Assembly: GCA_016184305.1 (NCBI GenBank)
Contig: JACPCX010000144.1
Coordinates: 1-24,835, forward strand
DNA from: Candidatus Rokuibacteriota bacterium
Lineage (GTDB): Bacteria > Methylomirabilota > Methylomirabilia > Rokubacteriales > CSP1-6
Reading direction: 5' to 3'
Length of the DNA stretch: 24,835 nt
Below are positions 2,939 through 16,853 of the stretch, in pieces. Both the position numbers and the translations under genes were made by a program. The notes under the pieces were generated by a model. The model was given only the letters and a program-made list of their open reading frames with translations, was not told the origin of the DNA and made no database searches. How positions within the stretch are numbered: the stretch's first letter is position 1; every line of letters begins with the position of its first letter.

Positions 2939-3585
2939 TGCGTTCTCGGGTGGTGGGCATGGGACTCGCGTGGCTCCTCGTCCTGGCCGCGGCAGGCGGC
3001 GCCTGGGCGGGAGCGCCCACGGATCAGCTCCGGGGCGCCATCGACCGCGTGATCAAGGCGCTGGACAACCCGGCCCTGAAGGGCGACAGCAAGGTCGGCG
3101 AGCGCCGGACCGCCGTCCGGAAGATCGCCAACGACATCTTCGACTTCGGGGAGATCGCCCGGCGCTCGCTCGGGCGGCACTGGCAGGGACGCACGGACAA
3201 GGAGCGGGAGGAGTTCATTTCCCTCTTCGGCGATCTCCTGGAGCGCTCCTACATCTCCAAGATCGAGCTGTACGGCGGCGAGAAGATCCTCTACACGAAC
3301 GAGCGGATGGACGCGGAGGTAGCGGTGGTGAGCACCAAGATCATCACCAAGAACGGCACCGAGGTGCCGATCGACTACCGCCTGCTCCGCCGGGGAGATC
3401 GCTGGCTCGTCTACGACATCAGCATCGAGGGCGTCAGCCTCGTCTCGAACTACCGCACCCAGTTCAACAAGATCATCCAGACCACCTCGTACGGCGAGCT
3501 CGTCAAGAAGATGCGGGCCAAGCAGGACGAAGTCTCCTTCGAGGACGAGGCCCAGAAGAAGGGCAAGACGTCGAAGACGCAGTAG
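2935..3585 (+). CDS. mlaC: MlaC/Ttg2D (HpnM-like) periplasmic lipid shuttle (216 aa)
   Basis: GGAGG at 2923-2927, ATG 2935 and a signal peptide ending AWA. MlaC motifs FDFGEIARRSLGRHW and WLVYDISIEGVSLVSNYRTQF. Confidence 0.92.
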   Translation: MMRSRVVGMGLAWLLVLAAAGGAWAGAPTDQLRGAIDRVIKALDNPALKGDSKVGERRTAVRKIANDIFDFGEIARRSLGRHWQGRTDKEREEFISLFGDLLERSYISKIELYGGEKILYTNERMDAEVAVVSTKIITKNGTEVPIDYRLLRRGDRWLVYDISIEGVSLVSNYRTQFNKIIQTTSYGELVKKMRAKQDEVSFEDEAQKKGKTSKTQ

Positions 3586-3600
3586 CCCGACGGAGTCTCC

Positions 3601-3965
3601 ATGACCACGACCGCGTGCTGCCCGCCCCCCCTGCTCCGCCGAGGCCCCGGGGCCAGGGGGATGGCGACGGCGTGACCGCCAACGGCGACATTCAGCGGGG
3701 CCCCTTCTTTTGTCTCGCCTGAACGTGAAGGCCCTCACGCGGCGGCTTGGCCTCTTCGCCCTCATGGGGCTCATCGGTTTGTCTCGCCTGAACGTGAAGG
3801 CCCTCACGCGGCGGCTTGGCCTCTTCGCCCTCATGGGGCTCATCGGTCGCGCTCGCCACGGTCACGGTCGGGGACCGGCCGGCGCCGCGGATCCCCGACG
3901 CGCCCGGGGAGATCCGGGACCGCTTCCGGCGCGCCCTCGGCCGCCGCGGAACGGAGCGCCCGTGA
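3601..3965 (+). pseudogene. Probable decayed remnant of a TPP-dependent (sulfo/phosphono)pyruvate decarboxylase beta subunit
   Basis: One frame reads VTANGDIQRGPFF (3672-3710), then GLASS..VALA, then PAPRIPDAPGEIRDRFRRAL, ending in TGA 3963-3965, which overlaps the next GTG. These resemble the ANGxIxR, MGLASSIGLGVALA and PxIPxxPxEIxxRF segments of ComE/Ppd-beta proteins. Internal stops are present and the central TPP-binding region is absent. Confidence 0.5.
3710..3847. repeat. Exact tandem duplication, 2 x 69 bp
   Basis: ttgtctcgcctgaacgtgaaggccctcacgcggcggcttggcctcttcgccctcatggggctcatcggt occurs at 3710-3778 and 3779-3847 with no spacer. Confidence 0.97.
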
Positions 3966-4702
3966 AGGCCATCATCCTGGCCGCCGGCGTCGCCCGCCGA
4001 CTGGCCCCGCTCACCGACTACACCCACAAGTGCCTGATCCCGATCGGCGGGCACTCGCTCCTCGACCGGATGGTGTCCTCCCTGGCGGACAACGGCGTCG
4101 CGGAGACCGTCATCGTCGTCGGCCACTGCCAGGACCAGATCCGCGCGGCCGCGGGTGACTGCCGCGGTGCCATGCGCATCCGCTACGTGGACAACCCCGA
4201 GTACCAGAAGGGCTCCATCCTGTCCCTCTGGCGGGCGCGTGACATCCTGACCCAGGGCACGACCATCGTGATGGACGGCGACGTGCTGTTCCCCACGGAG
4301 TTCCTGTCCCGTCTCATCGCCTCGCCGCACGCGAGCGCGCTGCTCCTCGACCAGAGCTTCACGGACACGGGCGAGGAGGTGAAGCTCTACGGCGTTGGCG
4401 ACCGCGTCATCGCCCTCGGCAAGAAGTTCGTGCCTCAGCAGTGGGACGTCATCGGCGAGGGCATCGGGTTCTTCAAGTGCAGCCCCGCGCACGCCCCCGA
4501 GTACATCCGGCTGCTGGCCGAGTCGATCGAGCAGACCGGCGGCGTGAACGAGTACGAGGACGCGCTCCACCACCTCCTGGGCGTCGTGGAGGTCGGCTGG
4601 GTGGACGTCACGGGCCTGCCCTGGACCGAGGTCGACTTCGTCGAGGACCTGCGGCGCGCCGAAAGCCAGGTGCTCCCGAGGATCGAGCGCCTCGGGCACT
4701 GA
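3962..4702 (+). CDS. LicC/IPCT-type phosphoester cytidylyltransferase (NTP transferase, 246 aa)
   Basis: GTG-KAIILAAGVARRLAPLTDYTHKCLIPIGG nucleotidyltransferase signature, MDGDVLF, and a C-terminal WTEVDFVEDL typical of the phosphocholine/inositol-phosphate cytidylyltransferase group. Confidence 0.85.
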   Translation: MKAIILAAGVARRLAPLTDYTHKCLIPIGGHSLLDRMVSSLADNGVAETVIVVGHCQDQIRAAAGDCRGAMRIRYVDNPEYQKGSILSLWRARDILTQGTTIVMDGDVLFPTEFLSRLIASPHASALLLDQSFTDTGEEVKLYGVGDRVIALGKKFVPQQWDVIGEGIGFFKCSPAHAPEYIRLLAESIEQTGGVNEYEDALHHLLGVVEVGWVDVTGLPWTEVDFVEDLRRAESQVLPRIERLGH

Positions 4703-4703
4703 C

Positions 4704-5894
4704 GTGGCGCGGGCCGTCCTCTACCTTCCCGATCCGGCCGAGCGCCGCCTCCCCGCGCGCTCCGTCGCCGGCCGCTCGCTGGCGCTGCGCGCGATCGTGG
4801 CGGCCGCGCGGGGCGGGGTCGAGATCGTGGGCGTCCCGGCCGCGCTGCGCACCCCCTCCCTGGAGACGGCCCTGCGGCGCACCCGCGGCCTGGCGGGCGT
4901 GTTGCGCTGGCTCGACGCGCGCGATCCGGCCGAGGCCCGCGCCTTCGCCAGTGAGCCCTGCTTGCTGCTGCCGGCCTCGGTCCTCGTCGAGCCGCGCACG
5001 CTCGCCGGCCTCCTGGAGGGCCCGATGGAGGTCGGCGGAGCCGCGATCGCGGAGTCGGCGGAGGGCGGAGCCCCGGTCGTGCTGGCGCCGCCCGAGCTCA
5101 TGGAGCGGCTCTGGCCGCGCCTGGCCGCGGGCGAGGCGCTGGGGCCCGAGCTCGTCCGCCTGCTGGAGGAGACGCGGCCCAAGCTCCGCTCGGCAGCGGG
5201 TCTCTGCCTGCACGTGCGGACGGAGGCGCGGCTCCGGGACGCCGACACCGCGCTCTACGTCGCCCTCGGCACCGACGATGACACGGGCGTGGACCGGTTC
5301 CTCCACCGGCGTTGCTCGCGACAGATCACGCGGCTCCTGGTCCGCACCCCGGTCACACCGAACCACGTGAGCCTCGCGAGCCTCGCCATCGGGCTCGGCG
5401 CCTTCTGGGCGTTCTGGCACGCCACGCCGGTGAGCGCGATCCTGGGGGTGGCCCTCTACTCGGTCGCGGTGGTGCTGGACCACGTGGACGGGGAGATCGC
5501 TCGGCTCACGTTCCAGGAATCGCGCTTCGGTGCCAGCCTGGACTGGGCCGTCGACACGATCATCCACTCGACGCTCGTGCTCGGCATGGCCGTGTCGGCA
5601 GCGCCCGGTCCATCGATGATGGCCATCGGCCTCCTCGGCGCGGCCGGAGTGACGCTGAGCGCCCTGTTCGCGCGCTCTCTGCCGCGCGAGATCGCCGTGG
5701 GCGAAAGCGTCGGCGGCGCGCTGAGGAACATGGGCACCCGCGACTTCTTCTACCTGCTGCTCGTGGCCTTCGTTCTCCTGCGGTGGGCGCGGCCCGCGCT
5801 GCTGCCCCTCCTCGCCACCGTTGTCGCCGTGGGCTCCCAGTCGTACTGGATCGCCTGCGTCGCGCGGATCCGGCGAGGGGCGGCGACGCGATAG
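4704..5894 (+). CDS. CDP-alcohol phosphotransferase with N-terminal degenerate NTP-transferase-like domain (396 aa)
   Basis: Complete CDP-AP motif DxxDGxxARx8GxxxDxxxD (LDHVDGEIARLTFQESRFGASLDWAVD), TPNHVS helix start and C-terminal TM helices. Confidence 0.9.
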   Translation: MARAVLYLPDPAERRLPARSVAGRSLALRAIVAAARGGVEIVGVPAALRTPSLETALRRTRGLAGVLRWLDARDPAEARAFASEPCLLLPASVLVEPRTLAGLLEGPMEVGGAAIAESAEGGAPVVLAPPELMERLWPRLAAGEALGPELVRLLEETRPKLRSAAGLCLHVRTEARLRDADTALYVALGTDDDTGVDRFLHRRCSRQITRLLVRTPVTPNHVSLASLAIGLGAFWAFWHATPVSAILGVALYSVAVVLDHVDGEIARLTFQESRFGASLDWAVDTIIHSTLVLGMAVSAAPGPSMMAIGLLGAAGVTLSALFARSLPREIAVGESVGGALRNMGTRDFFYLLLVAFVLLRWARPALLPLLATVVAVGSQSYWIACVARIRRGAATR

Positions 5895-5962
5895 GGCCGT
5901 CCGCCACCCGACCGCATCCGGTGCCCCGTCTTCCCGTCGACCTCGGCCCGGCTCTCGTCCGG

Positions 5963-6940
5963 ATGTTCCGCCCGCTGCTGCTCCTCGCGGGCGTCGCGTT
6001 CATCGCGTACCTCGTGTACGAGGTGGGCCCGGCAGCCGTGTGGGACTCGGTGCGCACGCTCTCCTGGCGCCTCCTCCTGGTGCTCTGCTTCCCCTACACG
6101 CTCACGACGACGCTGGACACGCTCGCGTGGCGCTGCGCCTTCCGCGGCCGCGGGTTGCCCTTCTGGAAGCTGTGGGGGGCGCGGCTCGCGGGGGAAGCCG
6201 TCAATGCGACCACGCCGACGGCCTCCGTCGGCGGCGAGCCCGTGAAGGCCTATCTGATGCGCCCGTGGGCTTCGCTGCAGGACGGGCTCGCCTCGGTGAT
6301 CGTCGACAAGACCGCGATCGTCGTCGGCCAGGGGCTCTTCCTCGTGCTCGGCCTCCTCGTCGCCACCACGCGCATGCCGGTCTCGAACCCCGTGATGACC
6401 GCCATGCTCGTGCTCCTCGCGGTGGAAGCCGCGGCCGTGGGCGGGTTCGTCTTCGTCCAGCTCCAGGGCGCCGCCGGCCGCGGCGGCCGGCTGCTCGGGC
6501 GGTTCGGCATGGGGCCAGGAGAACGCGGTCAGGAACGCCTCGATGGCCTCGACCGGGCCCTGCTCATCTTCTACCGCCATCACCGCCGGCGTCTCCTCGC
6601 CGGCATCCTGCTTCACTTCATGGCCTGGACGGCCGGCAGCCTCGAGATCTACCTGGTGCTGAGCTTTCTCGGGCTGCCGGTCTCGCTCCCGACCGCCGTG
6701 GCGATCGAGGCCTTCGGGACCGCGATCAAGTTCGCGAGCTTCATGATCCCGGCCTCGCTGGGGGCGCTCGAAGGGGGCAATGTCGCCATCTTCGCCGCCT
6801 TCGGGCTGGGCGGCGTCGCCGGTCTCTCGTACACGCTGATCCGCCGGCTGCGCGAGGCGGCGTGGATCGTGGTGGGCCTGGCCGCCATGGCTCTGCTGTC
6901 GGCGCGCCCGGCGCCCGGCGTCGAGGGCTCCGCGATGTAG
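5963..6940 (+). CDS. Lysylphosphatidylglycerol-synthase TM / flippase-like membrane protein (HpnL-like, ~325 aa)
   Basis: Hydrophobic multi-TM protein with [22 protein letters not shown] and [13 protein letters not shown] family motifs. Start ATG 5963 (alternative GTG 5921). Confidence 0.85.
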
Positions 6941-6961
6941 CGCCGGGCTCGACCCCGGCGC
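6940..6961 (+). terminator. GC-rich hairpin after the flippase stop (possible terminator or mRNA-stabilising stem)
   Basis: gcgccggg-ctcgac-cccggcgc, an 8-bp stem. There is no U-tract, so terminator function is uncertain. Confidence 0.3.
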
Positions 6962-6970
6962 CTCCCGGTG

Positions 6971-6979
6971 TGCTAGACT
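6971..6979 (+). promoter_or_regulatory. Candidate extended -10 promoter for ino1
   Basis: TGcTAGACT (TGn + TAnnnT) in the intergenic gap about 80 bp upstream of the ino1 start. Confidence 0.45.
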
Positions 6980-7055
6980 CGGGGCGCTCGTCGCGGACCG
7001 CGCGTCCCGCATCCAGGACGGCGTGCCGACGACGGCACAGCCAAAGGAGGCGCCC

Positions 7056-8129
7056 GTGGGCTCTGTTCGCGTCGCGATCATCGGAGTGGGCAACTGCGCC
7101 TCGGCCCTCGTCCAGGGGGTGCAGTACTACAGGACGGCGGATGATGATGGCTTCATCCCGGGCCTCATGCGGCCCCGGCTCGGCCAGTACCGTGTGGGCG
7201 ACATCGAGTTCTCGGCGGCCTTTGACATCGATGCGCGCAAGGTCGGGACCGACCTCTCCGAGGCCATCGCCGCCGCGCCGAACAACACCGTGCGTTTCGC
7301 GGAGGTGCCGCGGCTCGGGGTCCCGGTCCACCGCGGGATGACCCACGACGGTCTGGGCCACTACCTGTCCCAGGTGATCACGAAGGCACCCGGCTCCACG
7401 GCCGACATCGCGGGGATCCTCCGCGACACCCGCACGGACGTGGTGGTCAATTACCTGCCCGTGGGGAGCGAGATGGCGACCAAGTGGTACGTCGAGCAGG
7501 TGCTCGACGCCGGCTGCGGGTTTGTCAACTGCATCCCCGTGTTCATCGCGCGGGAGGCGTACTGGCGCGGCCGCTTCGAGGAGCGCGGCCTGCCCGTCGT
7601 GGGGGACGACGTGAAGTCGCAGGTCGGCGCCACCATCGTGCACCGGGTGCTGGCCAAGCTCTTCATGGACCGGGGCGTTCACCTGGACCGCACCAGCCAG
7701 CTCAACGTCGGCGGGAACACCGACTTCTACAACATGCTGGAGCGCCAGCGCCTGCAGTCCAAGAAGATCTCGAAGACGGACTCCGTCCGCTCCCAGCTCA
7801 CCCACGACCTGCCCGACGACGCCATCCACATCGGGCCCAGCGACTACATCCCGTGGCTCGCCGACCGGAAGTGGGCCCACATCCGGTTGGAGGGGCGCGG
7901 CTTCGGGGACCAGCCGATCAACGTGGAGCTCAAGCTCGAGGTCTGGGACTCGCCGAACTCGGCCGGCGTCGTCATCGACGCGATCCGCTGCTGCAAGATC
8001 GCCATGGACCGCGGCCTCAAGGGCACCCTCCTGGCCCCCTCCGCCTACCTCATGAAGTCCCCGCCCGAGCAGTGGTCGGACGAGCAGGCCCGGACGCGCC
8101 TGGAGCAGTTCATCACCGGCGACGAATAA
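7056..8129 (+). CDS. ino1: myo-inositol-1(3)-phosphate synthase (357 aa)
   Basis: Strong SD AAGGAGG at 7044-7050 before GTG 7056. [45 protein letters not shown] and [12 protein letters not shown] are diagnostic MIPS motifs. Confidence 0.96.
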
Positions 8130-8243: not shown

Positions 8244-10988
8244 ATGATCGCCATCTCCAGAACCGGTCGTCTGCTGCGCAGCCTGGTTCGGGTGTCCTGC
8301 CGGCGCCCGGTCCTGACGGTATTGGTGTCCCTCGTCCTCGCGCTGGCGGGCACCGCGCACACCGTCCAGGGTCTTCGCTTCAAGACCTCGGGGAGGGACC
8401 TGCTGCCCCAGAACGCCGGCTACGTCCTCCGCTACGCCGAGTACTCCCGGGACTTCGGTGAGCTGGAAGACATCGTGGTGGTCGTGGAAGCCGGCTCGTT
8501 CGAGGCCGCCAGGGACTACGCGAGCCGCCTCGTTCAGGAGTTGCGCAATTCCCCCGTGAAGTTCCCCCGAGCCTCGTACCGGATCGATCCCAAGCGCTTC
8601 GAGGGTCGCCAGCTCCTCTACCTGTCCACGGCAAAGCTGCGCGAGATCCGGGACAAGATCTTCGACCACCAGGAGTTCATGGAGAGCTTCGCGGCGGATC
8701 CGAGCCTCGCCCAGCTCCTGGAGGGGATCAACACCCAGATCGCCGCCAGCTTTCTCACCAACATCTTTGACCTCGGCCTCCAGGAGGACAAGGCGGTCGA
8801 CACGCGCTTCCCGCGGGTGCTGCTGGACCAGATCACGAGCCGCCTCGACCACCCGACGCAGTACCGCTCGCCGTGGGCCACGATGTTCACCTTCGGCGCC
8901 GACGTGGACTCCGATGCCGGCTACTTCCTGTCGGACGACAAGAGCCTGCTCTTCGTGCTGGTCGAGGCGCCGCAGGGCGAGAAGGGGAGCTTCGTCGGCG
9001 ACCACCGGGCCATCGACGCCATCCGCGGAGCCATCGCCGGGCTGCGCCCGGTCTTCCCCGACGTGCAGGCGGGGGTGACGGGCGCCCCCGCGCTGTCCAA
9101 CGACGAGATGGCGGCGGCGTTCGCCGACAGCAAGGTCGCCACACTGATCGCCTTCGCGCTCACCCTGCTCGTGATCACGCTCGCCTTCTGGCGAGTGGGG
9201 AAGCCGCTCCTGATGCTGGTCGTCCTCGCGGTGAGCCTGGCGTGGTCCATGGGCGCGATCACGCTGATCGTGGGCCACCTCACCATCTTCTCGGTGATGT
9301 TCATCTCCATCGTGATCGGCATCGGGATCGACTATGGCATCTACTTCCTCTTCCGCTACGAGGAGGAGATCTTCCTCGGCCGCAACCTCAACGAGGCCCT
9401 GGAGGTCACCGCCGCCCGGACCGGACCCGGCATGCTGCTCGGCGCCCTCACCGCGGGCGGCACCTTCTACGTCCTCCGTCTCACCGACTTCCGCGGCATC
9501 CAGGAGCTGGGCGTCATTGCGGGGACCTCCATCTTGCTCGCGTGGCTCAGCATGATGACCCTCTTCCCGGCCCTCCTGGTGCTGGTGGACGGCCGCCACG
9601 CCGCTCGGCCCCGCGACCAGAAACCCCGCGCCCATCACCTCGAGCAAATACACGTGCCGGTCCTCGAGCGGCTCACGCGCTACCCGGGGACGATCCTGGC
9701 CGCTGCGGGCGTGCTCACCGTCTTGGCGGCCTGGGGGGTGCCATCGGTGGGCTTCGACTACAACCTCTTGAACCTGCAGGCGGAGGGCACCGAGTCGGTG
9801 GTCTGGGAGAAGCGCATCCTGGCCACGACGGGCCGCTCAGGCTTCAACGGCCTCGCCTCCGCGGCTTCGCTGGAGGAGCTCCGGCGGAAGCAGGAGGCGT
9901 TCGAGCGGCTGCCGTCCGTCTCCGAGGTGGATTCGGTGCTCCACCTGATCCCCGAAAACCAGGCCGCCAAGATTGCGATCATCAAGAGCTTCGCGCCGCT
10001 GGTGAATCCTGTCCGGATCGGGCGATCGAGTCCCGTGGACCTCGACCGGCTGACGCAGGCGGTGCGCGACCTCAATCGACGCCTCGACATGGCCGCCGCC
10101 GAGGCGGGCGCGAAGCTCCCCGCCGAGATGAAGCGGCTCCGGGAGCTGGCGGCCGCCTTGCTGACGCGCCTCGAGTCGGCCGACCGGGACGTGGCCGAGG
10201 CCGCCCTCACCCACCTGCAGGCCCAGCTCTACCGGGACTTCGTGGACAAGTTCTACGGACTCCAGCGCCGCCTGCGCCCGAAGATCATCACGCCCACGGA
10301 CGTGCCGGAGGAGCTGCGGCGGAAGTTCATCGGCGCCAGTGGGCACTTCCTGATCCAGGTGCACCCCAAGGTGGACATCTGGGAGCGCGCCGGCGCCGAG
10401 CAGTTCGTGCGAGAGCTGCGCTCGGTGGACCCGAACGTGACGGGCCCGCCCGTGATCACCTACGAGGCGATCCGCCTCATGGAGCGTGCGTACGTGCAGG
10501 GGACGGTGTATGCGTTCATCCTCGTGGGCGGGCTCACCTTCTGGATGATCCGGCGGGTCCGCGAGACGCTCCTCGCCCTGCTGCCCCTCGTGCTCGGCCT
10601 CGTGTGGACCATCGGGCTCATGCGCCTCTTCGGTCTCCAGTTCACCCTCGCCAACGTCTGGGGCCTGCCCCTGATCATCGGGACCTCGGCGGAGTTCGGC
10701 CTCAACGTGGTGATGCGCTACCTGGAAGGGCGCGAGCACGGCGGCCCGCTCGTGGCGCGGAGCACGGTGATGGCGGTGGCGCTCAACGGGTTGACGACGA
10801 TCGTCGGGTTCGGGAGCCTGATGATCGCCCACCACCGCGGGATCTTCGGCCTCGGGCTGCTCCTCACCATCGGGGCGACCTGCGCCCTGCTGGCCTCGCT
10901 CGTGGTGCTGCCGGTCGTCTTGCGGATGATCCCCCGGCACGCCGCGCAGCCCGTGGGGGACTCCATCTCCACCTCCGCCGCCGCATGA
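8244..10988 (+). CDS. MMPL/RND-family lipid transporter, HpnN-like (914 aa)
   Basis: Two-repeat RND topology with large periplasmic loops. Motifs VTGAPALSNDE, IGIGIDYGIY, FDYNLLNLQAEGTESV and VTGPPVITYE; GFGSLMIAHHRGIFGLG is typical of HpnN-like proteins. Confidence 0.9.
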   Translation: MIAISRTGRLLRSLVRVSCRRPVLTVLVSLVLALAGTAHTVQGLRFKTSGRDLLPQNAGYVLRYAEYSRDFGELEDIVVVVEAGSFEAARDYASRLVQELRNSPVKFPRASYRIDPKRFEGRQLLYLSTAKLREIRDKIFDHQEFMESFAADPSLAQLLEGINTQIAASFLTNIFDLGLQEDKAVDTRFPRVLLDQITSRLDHPTQYRSPWATMFTFGADVDSDAGYFLSDDKSLLFVLVEAPQGEKGSFVGDHRAIDAIRGAIAGLRPVFPDVQAGVTGAPALSNDEMAAAFADSKVATLIAFALTLLVITLAFWRVGKPLLMLVVLAVSLAWSMGAITLIVGHLTIFSVMFISIVIGIGIDYGIYFLFRYEEEIFLGRNLNEALEVTAARTGPGMLLGALTAGGTFYVLRLTDFRGIQELGVIAGTSILLAWLSMMTLFPALLVLVDGRHAARPRDQKPRAHHLEQIHVPVLERLTRYPGTILAAAGVLTVLAAWGVPSVGFDYNLLNLQAEGTESVVWEKRILATTGRSGFNGLASAASLEELRRKQEAFERLPSVSEVDSVLHLIPENQAAKIAIIKSFAPLVNPVRIGRSSPVDLDRLTQAVRDLNRRLDMAAAEAGAKLPAEMKRLRELAAALLTRLESADRDVAEAALTHLQAQLYRDFVDKFYGLQRRLRPKIITPTDVPEELRRKFIGASGHFLIQVHPKVDIWERAGAEQFVRELRSVDPNVTGPPVITYEAIRLMERAYVQGTVYAFILVGGLTFWMIRRVRETLLALLPLVLGLVWTIGLMRLFGLQFTLANVWGLPLIIGTSAEFGLNVVMRYLEGREHGGPLVARSTVMAVALNGLTTIVGFGSLMIAHHRGIFGLGLLLTIGATCALLASLVVLPVVLRMIPRHAAQPVGDSISTSAAA

Positions 10989-11698
10989 GGACAGCCTCCC
11001 CAACCGCGGCTCGCCCGCTGACCCGGTGCCGCGCGGTGCTGTTCGACTTCGGCGGCACCCTCGACGCCGACGGCCACCCCTGGAAGGAGCGCGTCGCCCG
11101 GCTCCTCGGGGAGGAGGGGCTCGCCCTCACCCCCGAGCGCTTCGACCCCGTGTTCTACGCGGCCGACGACGCGCTCGTCGGGGCCGTGCCGCCCACGCTG
11201 TCGTTCGCGGACACCGTCCACCGGCTCATCGCCGGCGTGGCCCGCGGGCTCCGGCTGGCCGATGCGGCGGTAGCGGACCGTGTGGCAACGCGGTTCCTCC
11301 AGCAGTCGCTGGCGGCCGTGCGCGCCAACGCCCCTCTGCTCGAGGCCCTGGGCGGCCGCTACCGCCTTGGCATCGTCTCCAACTTCTATGGCAATCTCGA
11401 GGCCGTGTGCGATGATTGCGGCGTCCGGAGCCTCTTCGCGACAATCATGGACTCGGCGCGCGTGGGGTGGCGCAAGCCCGACCCGCGCATATTCCGGACG
11501 GCGCTCGAAGCGCTCCGCGTGAGGCCGGCCGAGGCGGTGTTCGTGGGCGATTCCCTCCCACGCGACATGGTCGCGGCGCGAGCGGTGGGCATGCCTCACG
11601 TGTGGCTGGCCGCCGAGGCGTCTCAGGGGCGAGGCTCTTGCTGTCCGGGTGACCCCATCGTGCATTCCCTGAAGGATCTGGAGGGGCTGTTGCTGTGA
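10985..11698 (+). CDS. HAD-superfamily hydrolase/phosphatase (237 aa)
   Basis: ATG 10985 overlaps the MMPL stop (ATGA). Motif I variant VLFDFGGTLD, motif II IVSNF, motif III KPDP and motif IV FVGDS..RD. Confidence 0.9.
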   Translation: MRTASPTAARPLTRCRAVLFDFGGTLDADGHPWKERVARLLGEEGLALTPERFDPVFYAADDALVGAVPPTLSFADTVHRLIAGVARGLRLADAAVADRVATRFLQQSLAAVRANAPLLEALGGRYRLGIVSNFYGNLEAVCDDCGVRSLFATIMDSARVGWRKPDPRIFRTALEALRVRPAEAVFVGDSLPRDMVAARAVGMPHVWLAAEASQGRGSCCPGDPIVHSLKDLEGLLL

Positions 11699-12426
11699 CC
11701 CAGGAGGGACGGTTGCAAGGCGGAATCATCGCGGCGGGGGACGGCAGCCGCCTGCGCGAGGCGGGCTTCGCGATGCCCAAGCCGCTGGTCCCGGTGGCGG
11801 GGGTGCCCCTGATCGAGTCGGTGATCCGGAACTTCGTGGCCGCCGGCATCACCTCCGTCGTCGTCATCGTGAACGAGCGCGAGCGGGACTGCGTGGAATG
11901 GGCGCGCGGGCGCTTCGCCGGGCTCCATCTCGAGTTCATCGTGAAGACCACCCGCTCCTCGCTCGAGAGCTTCCTCGAGGTGACGGCGCGGTCCGGGACG
12001 GGGCGGCTCCTGGTCTCCACGGTGGACGCGTGGTGCCGGGAGACCGACTTCGTCGGGTTCGTCGAGGCGGCGCGGCGGCGGCCGCCCCAGGCCACCGTCC
12101 TGGCCGTGACGCCGCTCGTGGCCGACGAGAAACCCCTGTGGGCACGGCTCGGCGCCGGCGGCCGCATCGTGCAGCTCGGTGAGTCCGGCGGCACCTTCGT
12201 GACCGCCGGCATGTACCTGCTCTCCGAGCGCATCCGGCTCCTCCGCCCTCCGCCGGGGCTCGGGCGGCTGCGGGATCTCCTGGGATGGCTCGTGCGCTCG
12301 GGAGAGCCGGTATACGGTGAGATCATCCAGACGGTGGTGGACGTCGACCGGGCGAGCGATGTTGCGTTCGCTGAAGCGCTGGTCGCCGCCACGACCCATT
12401 CGGCAGTGGGAGGTGGTGCCGGGTGA
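11695..12426 (+). CDS. Nucleotidyltransferase (NTP transferase, 243 aa)
   Basis: GGIIAAGDGSRL...PKPLVPVAG signature, STVD, and C-terminal VDVDRASD; GTGA coupling on both sides. Confidence 0.88.
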   Translation: MTQEGRLQGGIIAAGDGSRLREAGFAMPKPLVPVAGVPLIESVIRNFVAAGITSVVVIVNERERDCVEWARGRFAGLHLEFIVKTTRSSLESFLEVTARSGTGRLLVSTVDAWCRETDFVGFVEAARRRPPQATVLAVTPLVADEKPLWARLGAGGRIVQLGESGGTFVTAGMYLLSERIRLLRPPPGLGRLRDLLGWLVRSGEPVYGEIIQTVVDVDRASDVAFAEALVAATTHSAVGGGAG

Positions 12427-13262
12427 GCCGTGGGCGCTCCTGGGGCGTGTTTCGAGAACGGACGCATTCGCCGAACCGTGAAGTCGACGATGCCGAGATC
12501 CTCCGTCTGACGGGCAAGCACCTGGAGGAGCGAGGCTTCGACGTGGTCCTCAAGAGCCCGGACGAGCTGATGGCGCCGGCCGAGGGGCCCCCGGACTTCG
12601 TCTTTCTCATGTGCGAGGGCGCGGAAGTCCTGCGTCAGCTCCGCAACTGGGAGACAGGCGGGTTGCGCCAGGTCAACAGTCCGGTCGCCGTCCTCAATAC
12701 GTACCGCGAGCGGATGATCGCCCGGTTCGAGGAGGCCGACGTGGCCTTCATCCCGAGCACCCTCGTCTCCACAGCCGCGTCGCCACGCCCGGCATCGCTC
12801 CCCGTCTGGGTCAAGCGGTCCGATGTCCACAACACCCAGGACGGCGACGTCGTCTTCGCCGCCACCGAGGAAGCCTGCCGCGCCGCCCTCGAGGCGCTGG
12901 CGCGGCGCGGCCTGCCGCGTGCCGTGCTCCAGGAGCACCTCGAGGGCGACCTCGTCAAGTTCTATGGCATCGGCACCGGAGGCGGTCGCGACGGAGGGCC
13001 TCCGTGGTTCAGGTGGTTCTACCACAAGGACCAGACAGTTGCCGGTCATCCCCTCGATCCGCGCGGCCTCGCGCGCCTCGCGCGGACGGCGGCGGCGGCC
13101 CTGGGCCTCGAGGTGTATGGGGGCGACGCCATCGCAACCGCGCGCGGGGACCTCGTGCTCCTCGATCTCAACGCCTGGCCGAGCTTCGCCCTGTACCGCG
13201 ACGAGGCCAGCACCGAGATCGCTGCCTATCTCGAGCGGCGGCTCACGGGAGGAGCCCGGTGA
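12423..13262 (+). CDS. ATP-grasp fold protein with ITPK1-like motifs (279 aa)
   Basis: PVWVKRSD (ATP-grasp lysine), AVLQEHLEGDLVKFYGIG and LGLEVYGGDAI...LLDLNAWPSF. The ATP-grasp fold is well supported; the specific function is not. Confidence 0.75.
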   Translation: MSRGRSWGVFRERTHSPNREVDDAEILRLTGKHLEERGFDVVLKSPDELMAPAEGPPDFVFLMCEGAEVLRQLRNWETGGLRQVNSPVAVLNTYRERMIARFEEADVAFIPSTLVSTAASPRPASLPVWVKRSDVHNTQDGDVVFAATEEACRAALEALARRGLPRAVLQEHLEGDLVKFYGIGTGGGRDGGPPWFRWFYHKDQTVAGHPLDPRGLARLARTAAAALGLEVYGGDAIATARGDLVLLDLNAWPSFALYRDEASTEIAAYLERRLTGGAR

Positions 13263-14587
13263 CGACGCCTCGTGTCCCGGGCCCCCGCTCGCGGAGGATC
13301 GTCGCGCAGGAGCAGCGGCACATGGCGGCCGGGCTGCAGTCCTTCGCGCTGCGCGCCGGGCGCGCCATGGCGCGGGGCACCGGCTGCACGCTGATCGACG
13401 AGGACGGAAACACCTACATCGACTTCATCGCGGGCATCGCCGTCGGGAGCGTCGGCCACTGCCATCCCCACTACGTCGAGACGCTGAAGCGGCAGGTCGA
13501 GCGCCTCACCTTCGGCAGCTTCACGACGGAGGTGCGGGCGAAGTTCCTCGAGCTCCTCGCCACCGTCACTCCTCCCGGGCTCACCCGGATCCAGCTCTTC
13601 TCGGGCGGCGCCGAGGCGGTGGAGGCGGCCCTGCGCCTGGCCAAGGCCGTGACCAAGAAGCACGAGGTGCTCGGCTTCTGGGGCGGGTTCCACGGCAAGA
13701 CGGGCGGGGTGCTGGGCCTCCTCGGCAGCGACTTCAAGCACCACCTGGGCCCGTTCCTGCCGGGTCAGTACCTCTCGCCGTACGCCGACTGCTACCGCTG
13801 CCCGTTGAAGCTCCGGTATCCCGAGTGCGGGATCGCCTGCGCCGAGTACCTCCGCGACGTGATCCGCCATCAGACGAGCGGCGAGATCGCTGCCATCATC
13901 GTGGAGCCGATGCAGGGGACTGCGGGCAATGTGGTGCCGCCCGAGGGGTTCCTCCGGGCCGTCCAGGCGCTCGCCCGCGACCACGGGGCCCTGCTCATCA
14001 CCGACGAGATGATCACAGGCTTCGGGCGGACGGGATCCATGTGGGGCTCGGATCACGACGGGGTCGTCCCGGACGCCATGACGGTGGGCAAGGGCATGGG
14101 CGGGGGCTTCCCCCTGAGCGGCGTGATCTCCACGGACGCGCTCACGGGCTTCCCGCCCTGGTCGAATCCGAGCGCCAGCTCGTCGAGCTACGGCGGCAAT
14201 CCCCTGGCCGCCGCCGCCGGCCTCGCCTCCCTCGAGATCATCCTGGGTGAGGACCTGGTCAAGAATTCGGCCCGGGTGGGCGCGGTCATGCTCGCGCGCC
14301 TGGAGCAGATGAAGGAGCGGTTCCGCTCCGTCGGCGAGGTGCGCGGCAAGGGCCTGATGCTGGGCATCGAGCTCGTCCGGGACCGCCTGACGAAGGAGCC
14401 GGTCCCGAAGGAGGTGGCGCAGGCGCTCTACCAGGAGTGCCTCCGGCGCGGCCTCGTCGCCATGACGTACTCGCCCACCATCCGGATCAACCCGCCCCTC
14501 GTCATCTCCGAGGACACTGCGCTCGAGGGGCTCGGCCTCCTCGAAGAGGCGCTCGCCGCCATCCTCCCCCGGCACGGGCTCGAGTGA
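13259..14587 (+). CDS. Class III PLP-dependent aminotransferase (442 aa)
   Basis: GTG 13259 after GGAG. YIDFIAGIAVGSVGHCHP, SGGAEAVEAA, FHGKT, IVEPMQG, DEMITGFGRTG and the PLP lysine in GKGMGGG. Confidence 0.93.
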   Translation: MTTPRVPGPRSRRIVAQEQRHMAAGLQSFALRAGRAMARGTGCTLIDEDGNTYIDFIAGIAVGSVGHCHPHYVETLKRQVERLTFGSFTTEVRAKFLELLATVTPPGLTRIQLFSGGAEAVEAALRLAKAVTKKHEVLGFWGGFHGKTGGVLGLLGSDFKHHLGPFLPGQYLSPYADCYRCPLKLRYPECGIACAEYLRDVIRHQTSGEIAAIIVEPMQGTAGNVVPPEGFLRAVQALARDHGALLITDEMITGFGRTGSMWGSDHDGVVPDAMTVGKGMGGGFPLSGVISTDALTGFPPWSNPSASSSSYGGNPLAAAAGLASLEIILGEDLVKNSARVGAVMLARLEQMKERFRSVGEVRGKGLMLGIELVRDRLTKEPVPKEVAQALYQECLRRGLVAMTYSPTIRINPPLVISEDTALEGLGLLEEALAAILPRHGLE

Positions 14588-14599
14588 CGCGGTCATGGC

Positions 14600-14751
14600 C
14601 CAGCAGGCTGCTGAAAAAGGCCCATCTGCTTCGTTGGCGCCCTCGGCCGCACGCTCAACGTACACAGAGTACGCCTCGCGTGCGGCCGTCGGGTGCCGCC
14701 TCGCATCTGGGCCTTTTTGAGCAGCCTGCGGGTCTTTCAGGAGGCTGCTAG
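14600..14751. mobile_element. ~150-bp palindromic non-autonomous element (MITE/REP-like)
   Basis: Arms 14603-14629 (gcaggctgctgaaaaaggcccatctgc) and 14703-14729 are inverted complements at 24/27 positions. Inner stems are cggccgcacgc/gcgtgcggccg and cgtac/gtacg. A second degenerate terminal repeat at 14733-14751 matches 14600-14618 at 15/19. No transposase is present. Confidence 0.7.
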
Positions 14752-14752
14752 G

Positions 14753-15754
14753 ATGCGGCGGGGCGCCATCATCGGTCTCGGCAACGTCGCCGTCGACGCG
14801 CGCCCGGCGCAGCGGGCCGAGGCCGCAGCGCGGCTGCCCGGCGCCCGCTGGTACGACTCGGCCGACGAGCTCCTGGCCGTGGAAGGGCTCGACTTCGTCG
14901 ACATCTGCACCCCGCCGTCGAGTCATGCCGGCCTGGTCACCGCCGCCCTGCGGCGCGGGCTCCACGTCCTCTGCGAGAAACCGCTGGTCTGCTCTCCGGG
15001 CGAGCTCGCCACGGTCACCCAGATCGCCGCTGCCACCGACCTTGTGCTCCACACCGTCCACAACTGGCATCACGCGCCCATCGTCCGGCGCACCTGGGAG
15101 CTGGTGCGCGACGGCGCTATCGGCCAAGTCCTGCGTGTCGTCTGGCACACCCTCCGGACCCGCCCGGCGGCGACCCACGACGAGCACGCCGGGAACTGGC
15201 GCACCGACCCGGCCATGGCGGGGGGCGGCGTGCTCACGGACCACGGCTGGCACGTGGTCTACGTCCTGCGGCGCTGGATCGGGCGCGAGCCCCTCACCGT
15301 GAGCGCCGCGCTCGAGCGGCGCCGGCATTTCCAGTGGCCGCTGGAGGACACCGCCCGGCTGCGGCTCACCTTCCCTGGCGCCACCGCGGAGGTGTTCCTC
15401 ACCTGGGCTTCCGACGTCAGACGCAACTGGGTCGAGCTCACGGGTACCGAGGGCACGCTGTGCATCGAGGACGACACGCTCGTGCTGACCCGGCGCGACG
15501 GGGCGCCCCGCGAGCAGCGGTGGCCGTGCCCGCCGGCGATGTCCGACGGCTCCCAGCACCCCGACTGGTTCGGCCCGGTCGCGGAGCAGTTCCTTGCCGA
15601 GATCGACGGCTCGGCGCCCCGGGGCGAGAACCTCGCGGAGGTGTCCCTCTGCGTGGCGCTGGAAGCCTCCGCGCGGGAATCGAGCCAGCGCGGCGAGCAG
15701 CCCATCCCCCTGCCGCTGACCCGGCCGGCGGTCGGGCGGGGGCCGTCGGTCTGA
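14753..15754 (+). CDS. Gfo/Idh/MocA-family NAD(P)-dependent oxidoreductase (333 aa; apparent in-frame deletion in the Rossmann fold)
   Basis: GAIIGLGNVA, LDFVDICTPPSSH, HVLCEKPL and GGGVLTDHGWH. The segment normally lying between GxGxxA and the beta-2 Asp appears to be missing. Confidence 0.85.
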   Translation: MRRGAIIGLGNVAVDARPAQRAEAAARLPGARWYDSADELLAVEGLDFVDICTPPSSHAGLVTAALRRGLHVLCEKPLVCSPGELATVTQIAAATDLVLHTVHNWHHAPIVRRTWELVRDGAIGQVLRVVWHTLRTRPAATHDEHAGNWRTDPAMAGGGVLTDHGWHVVYVLRRWIGREPLTVSAALERRRHFQWPLEDTARLRLTFPGATAEVFLTWASDVRRNWVELTGTEGTLCIEDDTLVLTRRDGAPREQRWPCPPAMSDGSQHPDWFGPVAEQFLAEIDGSAPRGENLAEVSLCVALEASARESSQRGEQPIPLPLTRPAVGRGPSV

Positions 15755-15756
15755 GG

Positions 15757-16853
15757 GTGGCCCTGGCGGGGGCGGCTCCGGACGGGGGTGGGGTCCTGCT
15801 GATCCTGCCTCCGGAGCCGGACGGCCGTGGGATTCCGCCGAGCTTGCTCGTGGCCGGCCTGCCCCTCTTGCGCCGGATCGTCCTGGCGGCGAATCGTGCC
15901 GGATTCGGCGCCGTGCTGGTGGGCGGGCTGCGGTCCGAGGATCAGCCGCTTCTCGCTGGGACCTCGGCCACCCCGATCGGCGGCGCCGGCGCGCTCCCTT
16001 CGCCGCTGCCGCCGCGCATCGTCCTCCTGGCCGCCAACGTGGTTCCGCAGCCCGCGTGGCTGCGCGGCCTGCGCGAGAGGGCATTGGAGCCCGATCAGCT
16101 CTGCGTCGACGACGCTTGGGTCGCCGTGATCGAGACGACGGAGTCGGCGCGCGTCGTGGAAGCGGCGGCCCGAGCCCGCAGCGCGGGCGAAGCGATGGCC
16201 GCCCCGCCGAGAGCTGGCTGCTGCGCAGCCTGATCACGCCCAGCGAGGGATTCATGTCGCGCCACTTCGAGCGGCGGCTGTCGCTGGCCCTCACGCGCCG
16301 GCTCGTCAGGACGGCAATCACCCCGAATCTGATGACGCTCGTGAGCGTCGCCGTCGGTCTGGCCTCCGCGCCGTTCTTCCTGTCCTCGGCGCCAGGCTGG
16401 CAGCTCGCCGGGGCGCTCCTGTTCCTGGCCCACTCGATTCTCGACGGCTGCGACGGCGAGCTCGCCCGTCTGAAGTTCCTCGATTCGCCTCACGGGGCCA
16501 TCCTGGACTTCTGGGGGGATAACCTGGTGCATGTGGCCGTGTTCGCGGGCATGGCCCTTGGCTGGAGCCTGGACGCCCGCGCCTCCTGGCCCCTGGTATT
16601 CGGCGCCGTGGCAGTGGTGGGCACCGCGGGGGCGGCCGTCGCGGTATACCGGCGCGGCGCGCACACCCTTGTCCCTGTCGCGAGCGCTTCGCCCTCGTCG
16701 CGGGTGGTGGAGGCGCTCGCCCACCGCGACTTCATCTACCTGATCGTGCTCCTGGCGGCGGCGGGGAAGGCCGCCTGGTTCCTCGTCCTCGCCGCGATGG
16801 GGACCCCGATCTTCCTCATCCTGGTCCTGTGGAGCGGGCGGAGGCGAAGTTAA
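15757..16853 (+). pseudogene. Second CDP-alcohol phosphotransferase with NT-like N-domain, split by a frameshift/deletion near 16200
   Basis: The N-part from GTG 15757 (LLVAGLPLLRRIVLAANRAGF) stops at 16233. The C-part is in another frame (AESWLLRSLITPSEGFMSRHFERRLS, TPNLMT, LDGCDGELARLKFLDSPHGAILDFWGD) and ends at 16853. The architecture parallels 4704-5894. Confidence 0.8.

Follow-up and report, generated by a model that had tools for sequence, protein, structure and literature searches.

What reaction is catalysed by the ATP-grasp protein encoded between a nucleotidyltransferase gene and an aminotransferase gene in a 24,835-nucleotide stretch of Candidatus Rokuibacteriota DNA (contig JACPCX010000144.1, positions 1 to 24,835; the whole stretch is called the window below)? 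The window also carries a gene for myo-inositol-3-phosphate synthase (MIPS), and an earlier note, made from the sequence without database searches, had suggested a bacterial ITPK1-like kinase making inositol polyphosphates or a multiply phosphorylated head group. The analysis described here places the protein in an orphan ATP-grasp family, and from its motifs and gene context we lean towards a function as a cyclitol or cyclitol-phosphate kinase feeding activation with cytidine diphosphate (CDP).

The ATP-grasp open reading frame (ORF) occupies positions 12423..13262 on the forward (+) strand, starts with a GTG codon and encodes 279 amino acids. Its G+C content by codon position (0.85 at third and 0.52 at second positions, in a window with 70% G+C) fits a coding frame. 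The GTGA at 12423-12426 contains both its start and the stop of the upstream nucleotidyltransferase gene (NTP transferase 2, 11695..12426, +), and the GTGA at 13259-13262 contains both its TGA stop and the GTG start of the class III aminotransferase gene (13259..14587, +). The coding-frame G+C content, together with the start and stop overlaps with both neighbours, therefore indicates that this is a genuine, undamaged gene. Purine-rich stretches, read from the sequence, lie ahead of the ATP-grasp and aminotransferase starts and are possible ribosome-binding sites. Four-base overlaps join the MMPL, HAD, NTP transferase 2, ATP-grasp and aminotransferase genes, and the ATP-grasp gene is translationally coupled within an operon that runs from the HAD gene through NTP transferase 2, ATP-grasp, the aminotransferase and a GFO/IDH/MocA dehydrogenase to a CDP-alcohol phosphatidyltransferase. 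The position given in the earlier note, in a MIPS cluster between an NTP transferase and an aminotransferase, is correct by gene annotation, and the two motifs quoted there are both present exactly as quoted: LQEHLEGDLVKFYGIG at residues 169-184 (nucleotides 12927-12974) and LGLEVYGGDAI-x8-LLDLNAWPSF at residues 227-255 (nucleotides 13101-13187). The first contains K179-F180-Y181 (12957..12965, +), and the second contains D235 and D248-x-N250 (13125..13172, +), the predicted Mg/ATP ligands. A glycine-rich insertion of seven residues, TGGGRDG (residues 185-191, window positions 12975-12995), follows the K-F-Y strand of the window protein; an insertion of this type is missing from 77-84 of 94 aligned homologues, and a similar one is found in a HAD-fused relative (P0285).

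The window protein belongs to an orphan ATP-grasp family that lies outside every curated family model. Pfam RimK (PF08443) scored 13.1 bits against a cut-off of 21 (E 0.071), over the last 55 residues only, and had no match in the window's genome at E ≤ 0.001; the NCBIfam RimK models scored about 14 bits against cut-offs of 143-331 (TIGR00768: 13.7 versus 143.4). The protein was not matched by PF05770 (Ins134_P3_kin) at E ≤ 10, and a six-frame search of the whole genome with the same model gave no match at E ≤ 1. No similarity to phosphoenolpyruvate (PEP)-utilising or glutamine kinase families was detected in Pfam or NCBIfam. A search of the PDB with the single sequence gave nothing significant, its top rows (CD1d, Fc receptor-like 5 and a glyoxalase) being rejected as chance matches. 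The ESM Atlas returned only the protein's own unnamed family and one cluster with RimK in 14% of its members. When the 94 members of the alignment described below were scanned singly against Pfam, they gave weak matches only (best E about 1e-3), to ATPgrasp_ST (25), RimK (19), Ins134_P3_kin (15, best E 0.0022) and TTL (8).

Relatives of the protein are numerous. Of 8,000 candidates scored in a word-indexed search, 1,794 clusters reached E ≤ 0.001; identity was 66-97% in the top 120, among which those named by organism were metagenome-assembled genomes (MAGs) of Rokubacteria/Rokuibacteriota. In an exhaustive search of 50%-identity representatives, 947 matched at E ≤ 0.001, of which 129 had E ≤ 1e-30, and at least 594 matches were confirmed in a collection of species-representative genomes. 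No description of the family was found in the literature by searches for ATP-grasp with inositol, cytidylyltransferase, CDP-alcohol or aminotransferase, or for CDP-inositol and Bacteroides kinases from 2022. The family is thus widespread and, as far as these searches reach, undescribed.

Conservation was assessed in an alignment (A1) of the window protein with 93 full-length relatives of 30-78% identity, 94 members in all. R11, D23, W129, K131, G175, G233, G234, D248, N250 and P253 are invariant, and S16, P17, N85, R95, R132, D142, H172, K179, F180, Y181, D235, W252, S254 and F255 are conserved in at least 88 of the 94 members. The ATP-grasp superfamily signature is present: K131, D248 and N250 (94/94) and D235 (93/94) align with the motifs of RimK, PsnB and ITPK4. 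Within the two motifs K179, Y181 and W252 are each found in 93/94, and F180 and S254 in 92/94. Conserved basic residues are R11 (94/94), R132 (88/94), H136 (84/94), H172 (89/94) and R259 (79/94).

At two positions the motifs separate the ATP-grasp kinases from the ligases with which they were compared. The family strand G-D-x-V-K-F-Y lies opposite R-I-F-K-F-Y in AtITPK4, G-A-D-I-R-C-F in Pseudomonas aeruginosa RimK and G-D-D-V-R-V-Y in PsnB, so that K179 faces Lys in the kinase and Arg in the ligases; among the ligases the strand comparison covers P. aeruginosa RimK and PsnB. The family motif I-D-x-N-D-W-P-S-F lies opposite V-D-L-N-Y-L-P-S-F in AtITPK4, M-E-V-N-S-S-P-G in RimK and L-E-L-N in PsnB, the middle metal ligand being Asp, as in ITPK1 and ITPK4, versus Glu in RimK and PsnB. 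In the alignment with Escherichia coli RimK the metal motif again has Glu, and the strand region is gapped. When the C-terminal 120 residues were searched against the PDB, human ITPK1 was the sole ATP-grasp match, its D-I-N-A-F-P-G-Y lying opposite D-L-N-A-W-P-S-F of the window protein, at a statistically weak E = 2. PPIP5K also has the Lys and the D-x-N motif. According to PMC7614388, the 5-phosphate is coordinated in ZmITPK1 by Lys198, Tyr200 and Lys306, all three of which are also found in AtITPK4. The K-x-Y spacing of Lys198 and Tyr200 fits that of K179 and Y181. On these alignments the family is kinase-like (ITPK) and not ligase-like (RimK/PsnB) at two catalytic positions, and the contrast drawn in the earlier note between ITPK-like and RimK-like motifs holds there, with Lys in 93/94 members and Asp in 94/94.

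The strongest evidence for function comes from the genes that accompany the ATP-grasp gene. Related loci were taken as the best 80 of the at least 594 matches in species-representative genomes; they represent about a dozen phyla (Methylomirabilota, Acidobacteriota, Verrucomicrobiota, Thermodesulfobacteriota, Myxococcota, Ignavibacteriota, Bacteroidota, Gemmatimonadota, Elusimicrobiota, Chloroflexota, Nitrospirota and Pseudomonadota) and include the cultured strains Dyadobacter luteus RS19 (L070) and Desulfoferrobacter suflitae DRH4 (L059). Partners were counted by tblastn with window proteins and related-locus proteins; the misses include loci ended by contig ends, and counts are also given for the 43 loci with at least 5 kb upstream and at least 6 kb downstream. 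An NTP transferase 2 gene was found within 2.5 kb in 62/80 loci (33/43 in the subset), an aminotransferase gene within 3 kb in 67/80 (36/43), a GFO/IDH/MocA dehydrogenase gene within 5 kb in 59/80 (36/43), and a CDP-alcohol phosphatidyltransferase gene within 10 kb in 67/80 (39/43). A HAD gene was present within 3.5 kb in 52/80 (34/43), and anywhere in the locus in 66/80. A flippase-like gene (LPG_synthase_TM) and a MIPS gene of either type were found within 10 kb in 44/80 (24/43) and 33/80 (21/43) loci, respectively. Pfam scans of eight loci bore out the partner assignments, and many of the MIPS proteins are of the long, eukaryote-like type.

About 12 of the 80 loci (L006, L021, L024, L027, L037, L040, L054, L065, L069, L070, L072 and L076) showed no match to an aminotransferase or to a dehydrogenase over the stretch fetched. 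They retain the NTP transferase (where detected), ATP-grasp, CDP-alcohol transferase, flippase-like and HAD genes. As the ATP-grasp gene persists without the aminotransferase and dehydrogenase, its substrate would therefore be independent of an amine or carboxylate made by those enzymes.

Fusions point to the same partners. Twelve long or odd proteins among 150 listed representatives were scanned, and seven were NTP transferase-ATP-grasp fusions, one an ATP-grasp-CDP-alcohol transferase fusion (P0129) and one a HAD-NTP transferase-ATP-grasp fusion (P0150). Among 22 relatives of 490-2000 amino acids, 16 had an NTP-transferase domain, two a CDP-alcohol transferase, one a HAD and one an aminotransferase fragment, and two had no Pfam domains. 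In P0285 an N-terminal HAD (13-216) precedes the ATP-grasp region (243-522). Kinase-nucleotidyltransferase fusions recur in other pathways, as in HldE and fucokinase/GDP-fucose pyrophosphorylase. A kinase is the most economical role for the family because its members are fused to NTP transferases or CDP-alcohol transferases and are kept without amine-forming genes.

The MIPS gene of the window (7023..8129, +; short bacterial type, by Pfam and NCBIfam) lies 4.3 kb upstream of the ATP-grasp gene. To follow this association beyond single loci, 151 genomes were sampled from the window's phylum, including an unpublished genome (G058); gene lists were compared by hand, and because the genomes are mutually related the tallies do not amount to a statistical test. 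The ATP-grasp gene was found in 76/151 genomes and MIPS in 117/151. MIPS was present in 74 of the 76 carriers of the ATP-grasp gene versus 43 of the 75 non-carriers, the two carriers without it being genomes of 88% (G117) and 86% (G126) completeness. The two genes were at most 10 kb apart on one contig in 26 of the 76 carriers. All five genomes checked among carriers from other phyla whose fetched flanks lack MIPS have it elsewhere in the genome. The association with MIPS, for which the earlier note had asked that co-occurrence be measured, is thus borne out.

From this evidence we infer, beyond what was observed, a kinase chemistry, a substrate, an order of steps and a final lipid. The ATP-grasp enzyme would phosphorylate a MIPS-derived cyclitol, namely myo-inositol, inositol 3-phosphate or, in the window, an aminated derivative, and would place the phosphate at a ring position other than the MIPS-derived one. 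The product of MIPS is 1D-inositol 3-phosphate; a nucleotidyltransferase requires a phosphomonoester, and a CDP-alcohol transferase requires a CDP-alcohol. The adjacent NTP transferase 2 would then make a CDP-cyclitol, from which the CDP-alcohol phosphatidyltransferase encoded at 16056..16853 (+) would transfer the phospho-cyclitol moiety onto a membrane lipid. The HAD-superfamily hydrolase (10985..11698, +) would remove the MIPS-derived phosphate, either before the kinase, between the kinase and NTP transferase 2, or on the lipid product, and the kinase/HAD pair would in effect shift the phosphate to the place on the ring where the phosphodiester is to be formed. In the window the GFO/IDH/MocA sugar or cyclitol dehydrogenase (14693..15754, +; Pfam and NCBIfam) and the class III aminotransferase would together replace one ring hydroxyl by an amino group (CHOH to CHNH2), giving a predicted phospho-inosamine head group.

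The choice of ring position is suggested by a second set of genes in the window. NTP transferase 1 (3710..4702, +), for which the top specific hit in NCBIfam was to the IPCT portion of IPCT/DIPPS (NF041135, 5.5e-20, below cut-off), is followed by a CDP-alcohol phosphatidyltransferase (4704..5894, +; Pfam and NCBIfam) with an N-terminal extension of about 200 residues. NTP transferase 2 (NTP_transf_3/NTP_transferase) resembles sugar-1-phosphate nucleotidyltransferases and is weakly IPCT-like; its NCBIfam matches are to sugar-1-phosphate nucleotidyltransferases and MurU, with IPCT only at 4e-6. Since an IPCT-like NTP transferase and a CDP-alcohol transferase already adjoin MIPS without an ATP-grasp gene, the arrangement suggests that NTP transferase 2 uses a phosphate ester other than the MIPS product. 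Likewise, another ring position is the predicted site of phosphorylation because the IPCT-like pair could use inositol 3-phosphate directly and NTP transferase 2 is of a different subfamily. The module at 3710-8129 comprises NTP transferase 1, the CDP-alcohol transferase, an LPG_synthase_TM/HpnL-like flippase-like membrane protein (5984..6940, +, with a provisional start; Pfam and NCBIfam) and MIPS, and adjoins the second CDP-alcohol module; locus L007 likewise has both modules, the second in the form of an NTP-CDP-alcohol transferase fusion (L007:16589-18082).

Several points weigh against a kinase. The first is chemical: MIPS already provides a phosphate ester that IPCT-type enzymes use directly, and a kinase is not strictly required. 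Motif I of the cassette HAD reads D-x-G-G-T-x-D, with Gly for the usual Asp at +2, in 7/7 aligned proteins; a simple phosphatase would not usually have Gly at this position, which makes the proposed shift of the phosphate less secure, and the enzyme may be a phosphotransferase instead of a plain phosphatase. The exchanges of Lys for Arg and Asp for Glu concern two positions only, and may not divide kinases from ligases throughout the superfamily. When the A1 family profile was searched by HMMER against PDB sequences, the top match was the ester- or amide-forming graspetide macrocyclase PsnB (E 2.3e-8 over 204 positions), followed by AtITPK4 (E 6.1e-6, 93 positions), RimK chains (E 9e-5 to 6e-4, about 200 positions) and ITPK1 chains (E 4e-4, 48 positions), the ITPK matches being much the shorter. 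Finally, the kinase activity itself is a prediction.

The predicted structure also points away from the inositol kinases. An AlphaFold model of the window protein (pLDDT 96.4, pTM 0.92) has the three-domain ATP-grasp fold. In fold comparison with this model the highest Z scores were those of ArgX (21.9), RimK (21.8) and LysX/ArgX (21.5), followed by synapsin (20.9), carbamoyl-phosphate synthetase (20.8) and Ddl (about 20); human ITPK1 and PPIP5K2 (both 18.8), StITPK1 (18.2), EhITPK1 (17.8) and AtITPK4 (17.7) scored lower, as did GshB (17.4) and PsnB (16.9). The closest folds are therefore small RimK/LysX ligases, about 3 Z units above the inositol kinases, with a second comparison in agreement, and the ITPK folds were placed below about 16 other ATP-grasp representatives, so that the fold is not closer to ITPK. 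The earlier note had held that best structural matches to RimK/LysX ligases with a carboxylate-amine site would speak against its proposal. RimK/LysX are indeed the nearest folds, but the ranking is silent on the substrate site of the protein and has no bearing on the presence of a carboxylate-amine site.

These likenesses would fit a different reaction, in which the protein is an ATP-grasp ligase that attaches a carboxylate, for example that of an amino acid, by way of an acyl phosphate. The acceptor would be an amine or hydroxyl on the inositol or inosamine head group, or on a precursor of it that is bound to CDP or phosphate; the head group decorated in this way, possibly cationic, would be moved across the membrane by the MprF-like flippase domain. 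Besides the nearest folds and the PsnB match, the weak Pfam matches among the 94 members favour ATPgrasp_ST and RimK (25 and 19) over Ins134_P3_kin (15); an aminotransferase, which would create an amine, is the next gene in 67/80 loci, and 44/80 have a gene of the MprF flippase type (LPG_synthase_TM) within 10 kb. We nevertheless regard a ligase as unlikely. The gene is retained in the roughly 12 loci that lack a match to either amine-pathway gene, its fusion partners are NTP transferases (16/22), CDP-alcohol transferases and HAD proteins and not amine- or carboxylate-forming enzymes, and Lys and Asp replace the Arg and Glu of RimK and PsnB almost throughout the family. A flippase-like gene is also found where an ATP-grasp gene is absent, in the BT-type inositol cluster as described in PMC9246714. 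A narrower version, in which a carboxylate made by the GFO/IDH/MocA enzyme is joined to the amine made by the aminotransferase, was rejected as a general function, as the ATP-grasp gene persists without both genes.

Other ATP chemistry on the head-group precursor appears improbable. An inosamine might be N-phosphorylated to a phosphoramidate that is then cytidylylated, or a phosphate might be converted to a diphosphate in the manner of PPIP5K. Both have parallels, a glutamine kinase acting with a cytidylyltransferase in the synthesis of the O-methyl phosphoramidate of Campylobacter, and PPIP5K phosphorylating a phosphate to a diphosphate. The ATP-grasp gene is, however, kept in cassettes without an aminotransferase, and the protein resembles none of the PEP-utilising or glutamine kinase families of Pfam and NCBIfam.

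A true ITPK1-type kinase that makes inositol polyphosphates (InsP2 to InsP6) or a head group with several phosphates is very improbable: the likeness of K-x-Y and D-x-N-x-x-P-S-F to ITPK1 and ITPK4, the linkage to MIPS and the HAD of P0285, N-terminal to the ATP-grasp region as is the HAD-like domain of AtITPK4 (available part of PMC7614388), speak for it, but PF05770 matches neither the protein nor any frame of the genome at E ≤ 1, ITPK sequences align over just 48-93 positions at the C-terminal end, about 16 other representatives are closer in fold than the ITPKs, the nucleotidyltransferase and CDP-alcohol transferase partners need a single phosphomonoester, and the Pfam matches of the window's genes include no other inositol-phosphate kinase or phytase-type gene. 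Of the earlier proposal, a kinase-like enzyme is supported by the ATP-grasp fold, the Lys and Asp positions, the linkage to MIPS and the NTP-transferase fusions, but membership of the ITPK1 family is not, given the absence of a PF05770 match and the weak matches of 15/94 relatives. Inositol polyphosphates find no support, since the nucleotidyltransferase, CDP-alcohol transferase and HAD partners imply one phosphate ester followed by CDP activation.

The preferred reading, a cyclitol(-phosphate) kinase, can be extended to a fuller scenario that we put forward tentatively. The family would be a prokaryotic counterpart of ITPK/PPIP5K, which together with the HAD protein and nucleotidyltransferase would lead to CDP-inositol or, in the window, CDP-inosamine. 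The end product in the window would be a new phospho-inosamine glycerolipid or sphingolipid exported by HpnN/Mla-type transporters, and the enzyme would supply a missing step of the alternative inositol lipid pathway of Bacteroidetes discussed below.

The remaining genes of the window are compatible with such a lipid product. An MMPL/RND transporter, HpnN-like but below the curated cut-off, is encoded at 8244..10988 (+), and genes for an ABC ATPase, MlaD and an outer-membrane efflux protein lie ahead of NTP transferase 1 on the same strand; the MMPL, Mla and outer-membrane genes would fit lipid export. Between the efflux gene and NTP transferase 1 (2938-3700), long ORFs at 2970-3722 (+) and 2902-3843 (-) have no family match. 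The HAD gene was masked in the ORF list, where its frame is open from 8873, and was recognised from the HAD gene at the same place in related loci; its ATG lies across the stop codon of the MMPL gene and its stop codon across the start of NTP transferase 2. Relatives of the GFO/IDH/MocA protein, all below cut-off, are xylose 1-dehydrogenase, levoglucosan dehydrogenase, IolG and UDP-GlcNAc 3-dehydrogenase. The second CDP-alcohol phosphatidyltransferase has below-cut-off matches to DIPP synthase, archaetidylinositol-phosphate synthase and PIP synthase, and to NF041135 at 3.2e-21.

Some loci carry hints of the lipid acceptor. The best matches of the MMPL protein (8244-10988) and of the flippase-like protein (5984-6940) are HpnN and HpnL, both below cut-off, and a squalene-hopene cyclase gene was found in the fetched flanks of 3-4/80 loci (e.g. 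L007:5226-7157); that of the window's genome is at G000:C164:679-1635. A hopanoid is a possible acceptor of the head group. A hopanoid link was rejected as the principal interpretation, as the HpnN and HpnL matches are below cut-off, the cyclase of the genome is on another contig, and the cassette occurs in Phocaeicola-type Bacteroidota; organisms of this type are not known to make hopanoids. In Verrucomicrobiota (L047:13084-15707; L046, L052, L056, L061, L067 and L074) the cassette is followed by a serine palmitoyltransferase-like class I/II aminotransferase and a Lipid_DES desaturase, which hints at ceramide as the acceptor. In Dyadobacter luteus (L070:13640-15754) the minimal cassette is succeeded by genes for a PfkB-family kinase, a DUF4833 protein and a fatty-acid hydroxylase, and MIPS is outside the flank, elsewhere in the genome; the PfkB kinase might serve inositol salvage.

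The evolutionary relationships of the cassettes were examined in a quick maximum-likelihood tree (IQ-TREE) for the 80 loci, built from 86 ATP-grasp sequences, matches of fewer than 230 query residues being left out. Acidobacteriota often have two ATP-grasp copies 7-9 kb apart (L017, L022, L025, L030, L033, L035, L039 and L044). One copy, in the order NTP-ATP-grasp-aminotransferase, falls in a clade of 13, and the other, in the order HAD-ATP-grasp-CDP-alcohol transferase, in a clade of 11 with an SH-aLRT of 100 and a long stem. There may accordingly be two ATP-grasp steps in one pathway in these organisms. The label 'aminotransferase adjacent' requires 6 changes on the tree, compared with a mean of 19 when labels were shuffled. 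A locus titled uncultured Bifidobacterium sp. (L055) groups with Verrucomicrobiota and a betaproteobacterial MAG and has a full Gram-negative-type cassette; its bin label looks doubtful.

Comparison with known systems sets the family apart from each of its relatives. RimK, LysX and ArgX, the alpha-L-glutamate and LysW ligases, are its closest folds, but the window protein is below every curated cut-off of their models, and the Arg of their D-x-R and the Glu of their E-x-N are Lys and Asp in the window family. The family's context is CDP-alcohol head-group synthesis. If the protein were a ligase after all, it would define a tRNA-independent decoration of lipid head groups.

With ITPK1 and ITPK4 the family has in common the K-x-Y strand and the D-x-N-x-x-P-S/G-F/Y motif, and its substrates would plausibly be inositol phosphates made by MIPS. 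AtITPK4 was the top-scoring ITPK against the family profile. Some relatives (P0285 and P0150) have an N-terminal HAD, as AtITPK4 has a HAD-like domain in the available text of PMC7614388. The differences are that no significant Pfam match exists, the HMMER alignment covers C-terminal positions only, and the loop from the Q-E hinge to the Lys appears to be two residues shorter in the window protein than in ZmITPK1, judged by the ITPK1 motif quoted in the earlier note. The gene context moreover predicts a single phosphorylation for CDP activation, as opposed to polyphosphate signalling. So far, inositol-acting ATP-grasp kinases are known from eukaryotes. Archaeal ITPK homologues have been reported (PMC8024741). 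If a bacterial family shares both catalytic substitutions with them, this would be relevant to the origin of inositol-kinase chemistry.

The NDP-heptose route (HddA/HldE, GmhB and HddC) also combines a kinase, a HAD phosphatase and a nucleotidyltransferase, and its known kinase-nucleotidyltransferase fusions resemble the NTP-ATP-grasp and HAD-NTP-ATP-grasp fusions of the present family. The likeness is no more than an analogy, for in the heptose route the kinase has a GHMP or PfkB fold, the substrate is a sugar, and the end product is not a lipid head group. The IPCT/DIPPS system of hyperthermophiles has the same two-step logic and related CDP-alcohol transferases, the NF041135 matches of NTP transferase 1 and the second CDP-alcohol transferase of the window both being below cut-off. 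IPCT takes the MIPS product directly, without a kinase, and the window has such a pair (3710-5894) besides its ATP-grasp cassette.

A parallel in gene content is the 'alternative inositol lipid cluster' of Bacteroides vulgatus and Prevotella. In Heaver et al. 2022 (PMC9246714), this consists of genes for an NTP transferase, a CDP-alcohol phosphatidyltransferase and a HAD hydrolase (BVU_RS13095, BVU_RS13105 and BVU_RS13115, respectively) adjoining MIPS, with a lysyl-PG-synthase-like gene nearby; according to the authors the function of the cluster is unconfirmed. The same text reports PI-DHC in B. vulgatus and P. veroralis, and its proposed scheme converts inositol phosphate directly to CDP-inositol; the term 'ATP-grasp' has 0 occurrences in it. 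The window contains the elements of that cluster in its HAD (10985-11698), NTP transferase (11695-12426), CDP-alcohol transferase (16056-16853) and MIPS (7023-8129) genes, with an aminotransferase and a dehydrogenase in addition. The Bacteroidota loci of a Phocaeicola sp. (L072) and Dyadobacter luteus (L070) contain, in this order, NTP transferase, ATP-grasp, CDP-alcohol transferase, LPG_synthase_TM and HAD genes, so that ATP-grasp stands between the NTP transferase and the phosphatidyltransferase, and in L076 MIPS adjoins the cassette. The minimal cassette thus equals the alternative cluster, as described there, plus the ATP-grasp gene, and from the gap in locus tags we infer that the B. vulgatus gene between BVU_RS13095 and BVU_RS13105 is an ATP-grasp homologue.

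In gut Bacteroidetes, inositol lipids influence how the capsule is regulated and how fit the bacteria are within the host, and about half of the species have been proposed to use the unconfirmed alternative pathway (PMC9246714). A conserved and overlooked fourth enzyme would alter the chemistry proposed for this pathway and provides a direct target for knock-out. The form with aminotransferase and dehydrogenase, in soil phyla (Rokubacteria/Methylomirabilota, Acidobacteriota, Verrucomicrobiota and Gemmatimonadota), predicts an aminocyclitol phospholipid head group, which could lie behind some of the 'unidentified aminophospholipids' and be of use as a biomarker. Set beside the alternative cluster, the ATP-grasp family would fill a gap in a pathway of current interest.

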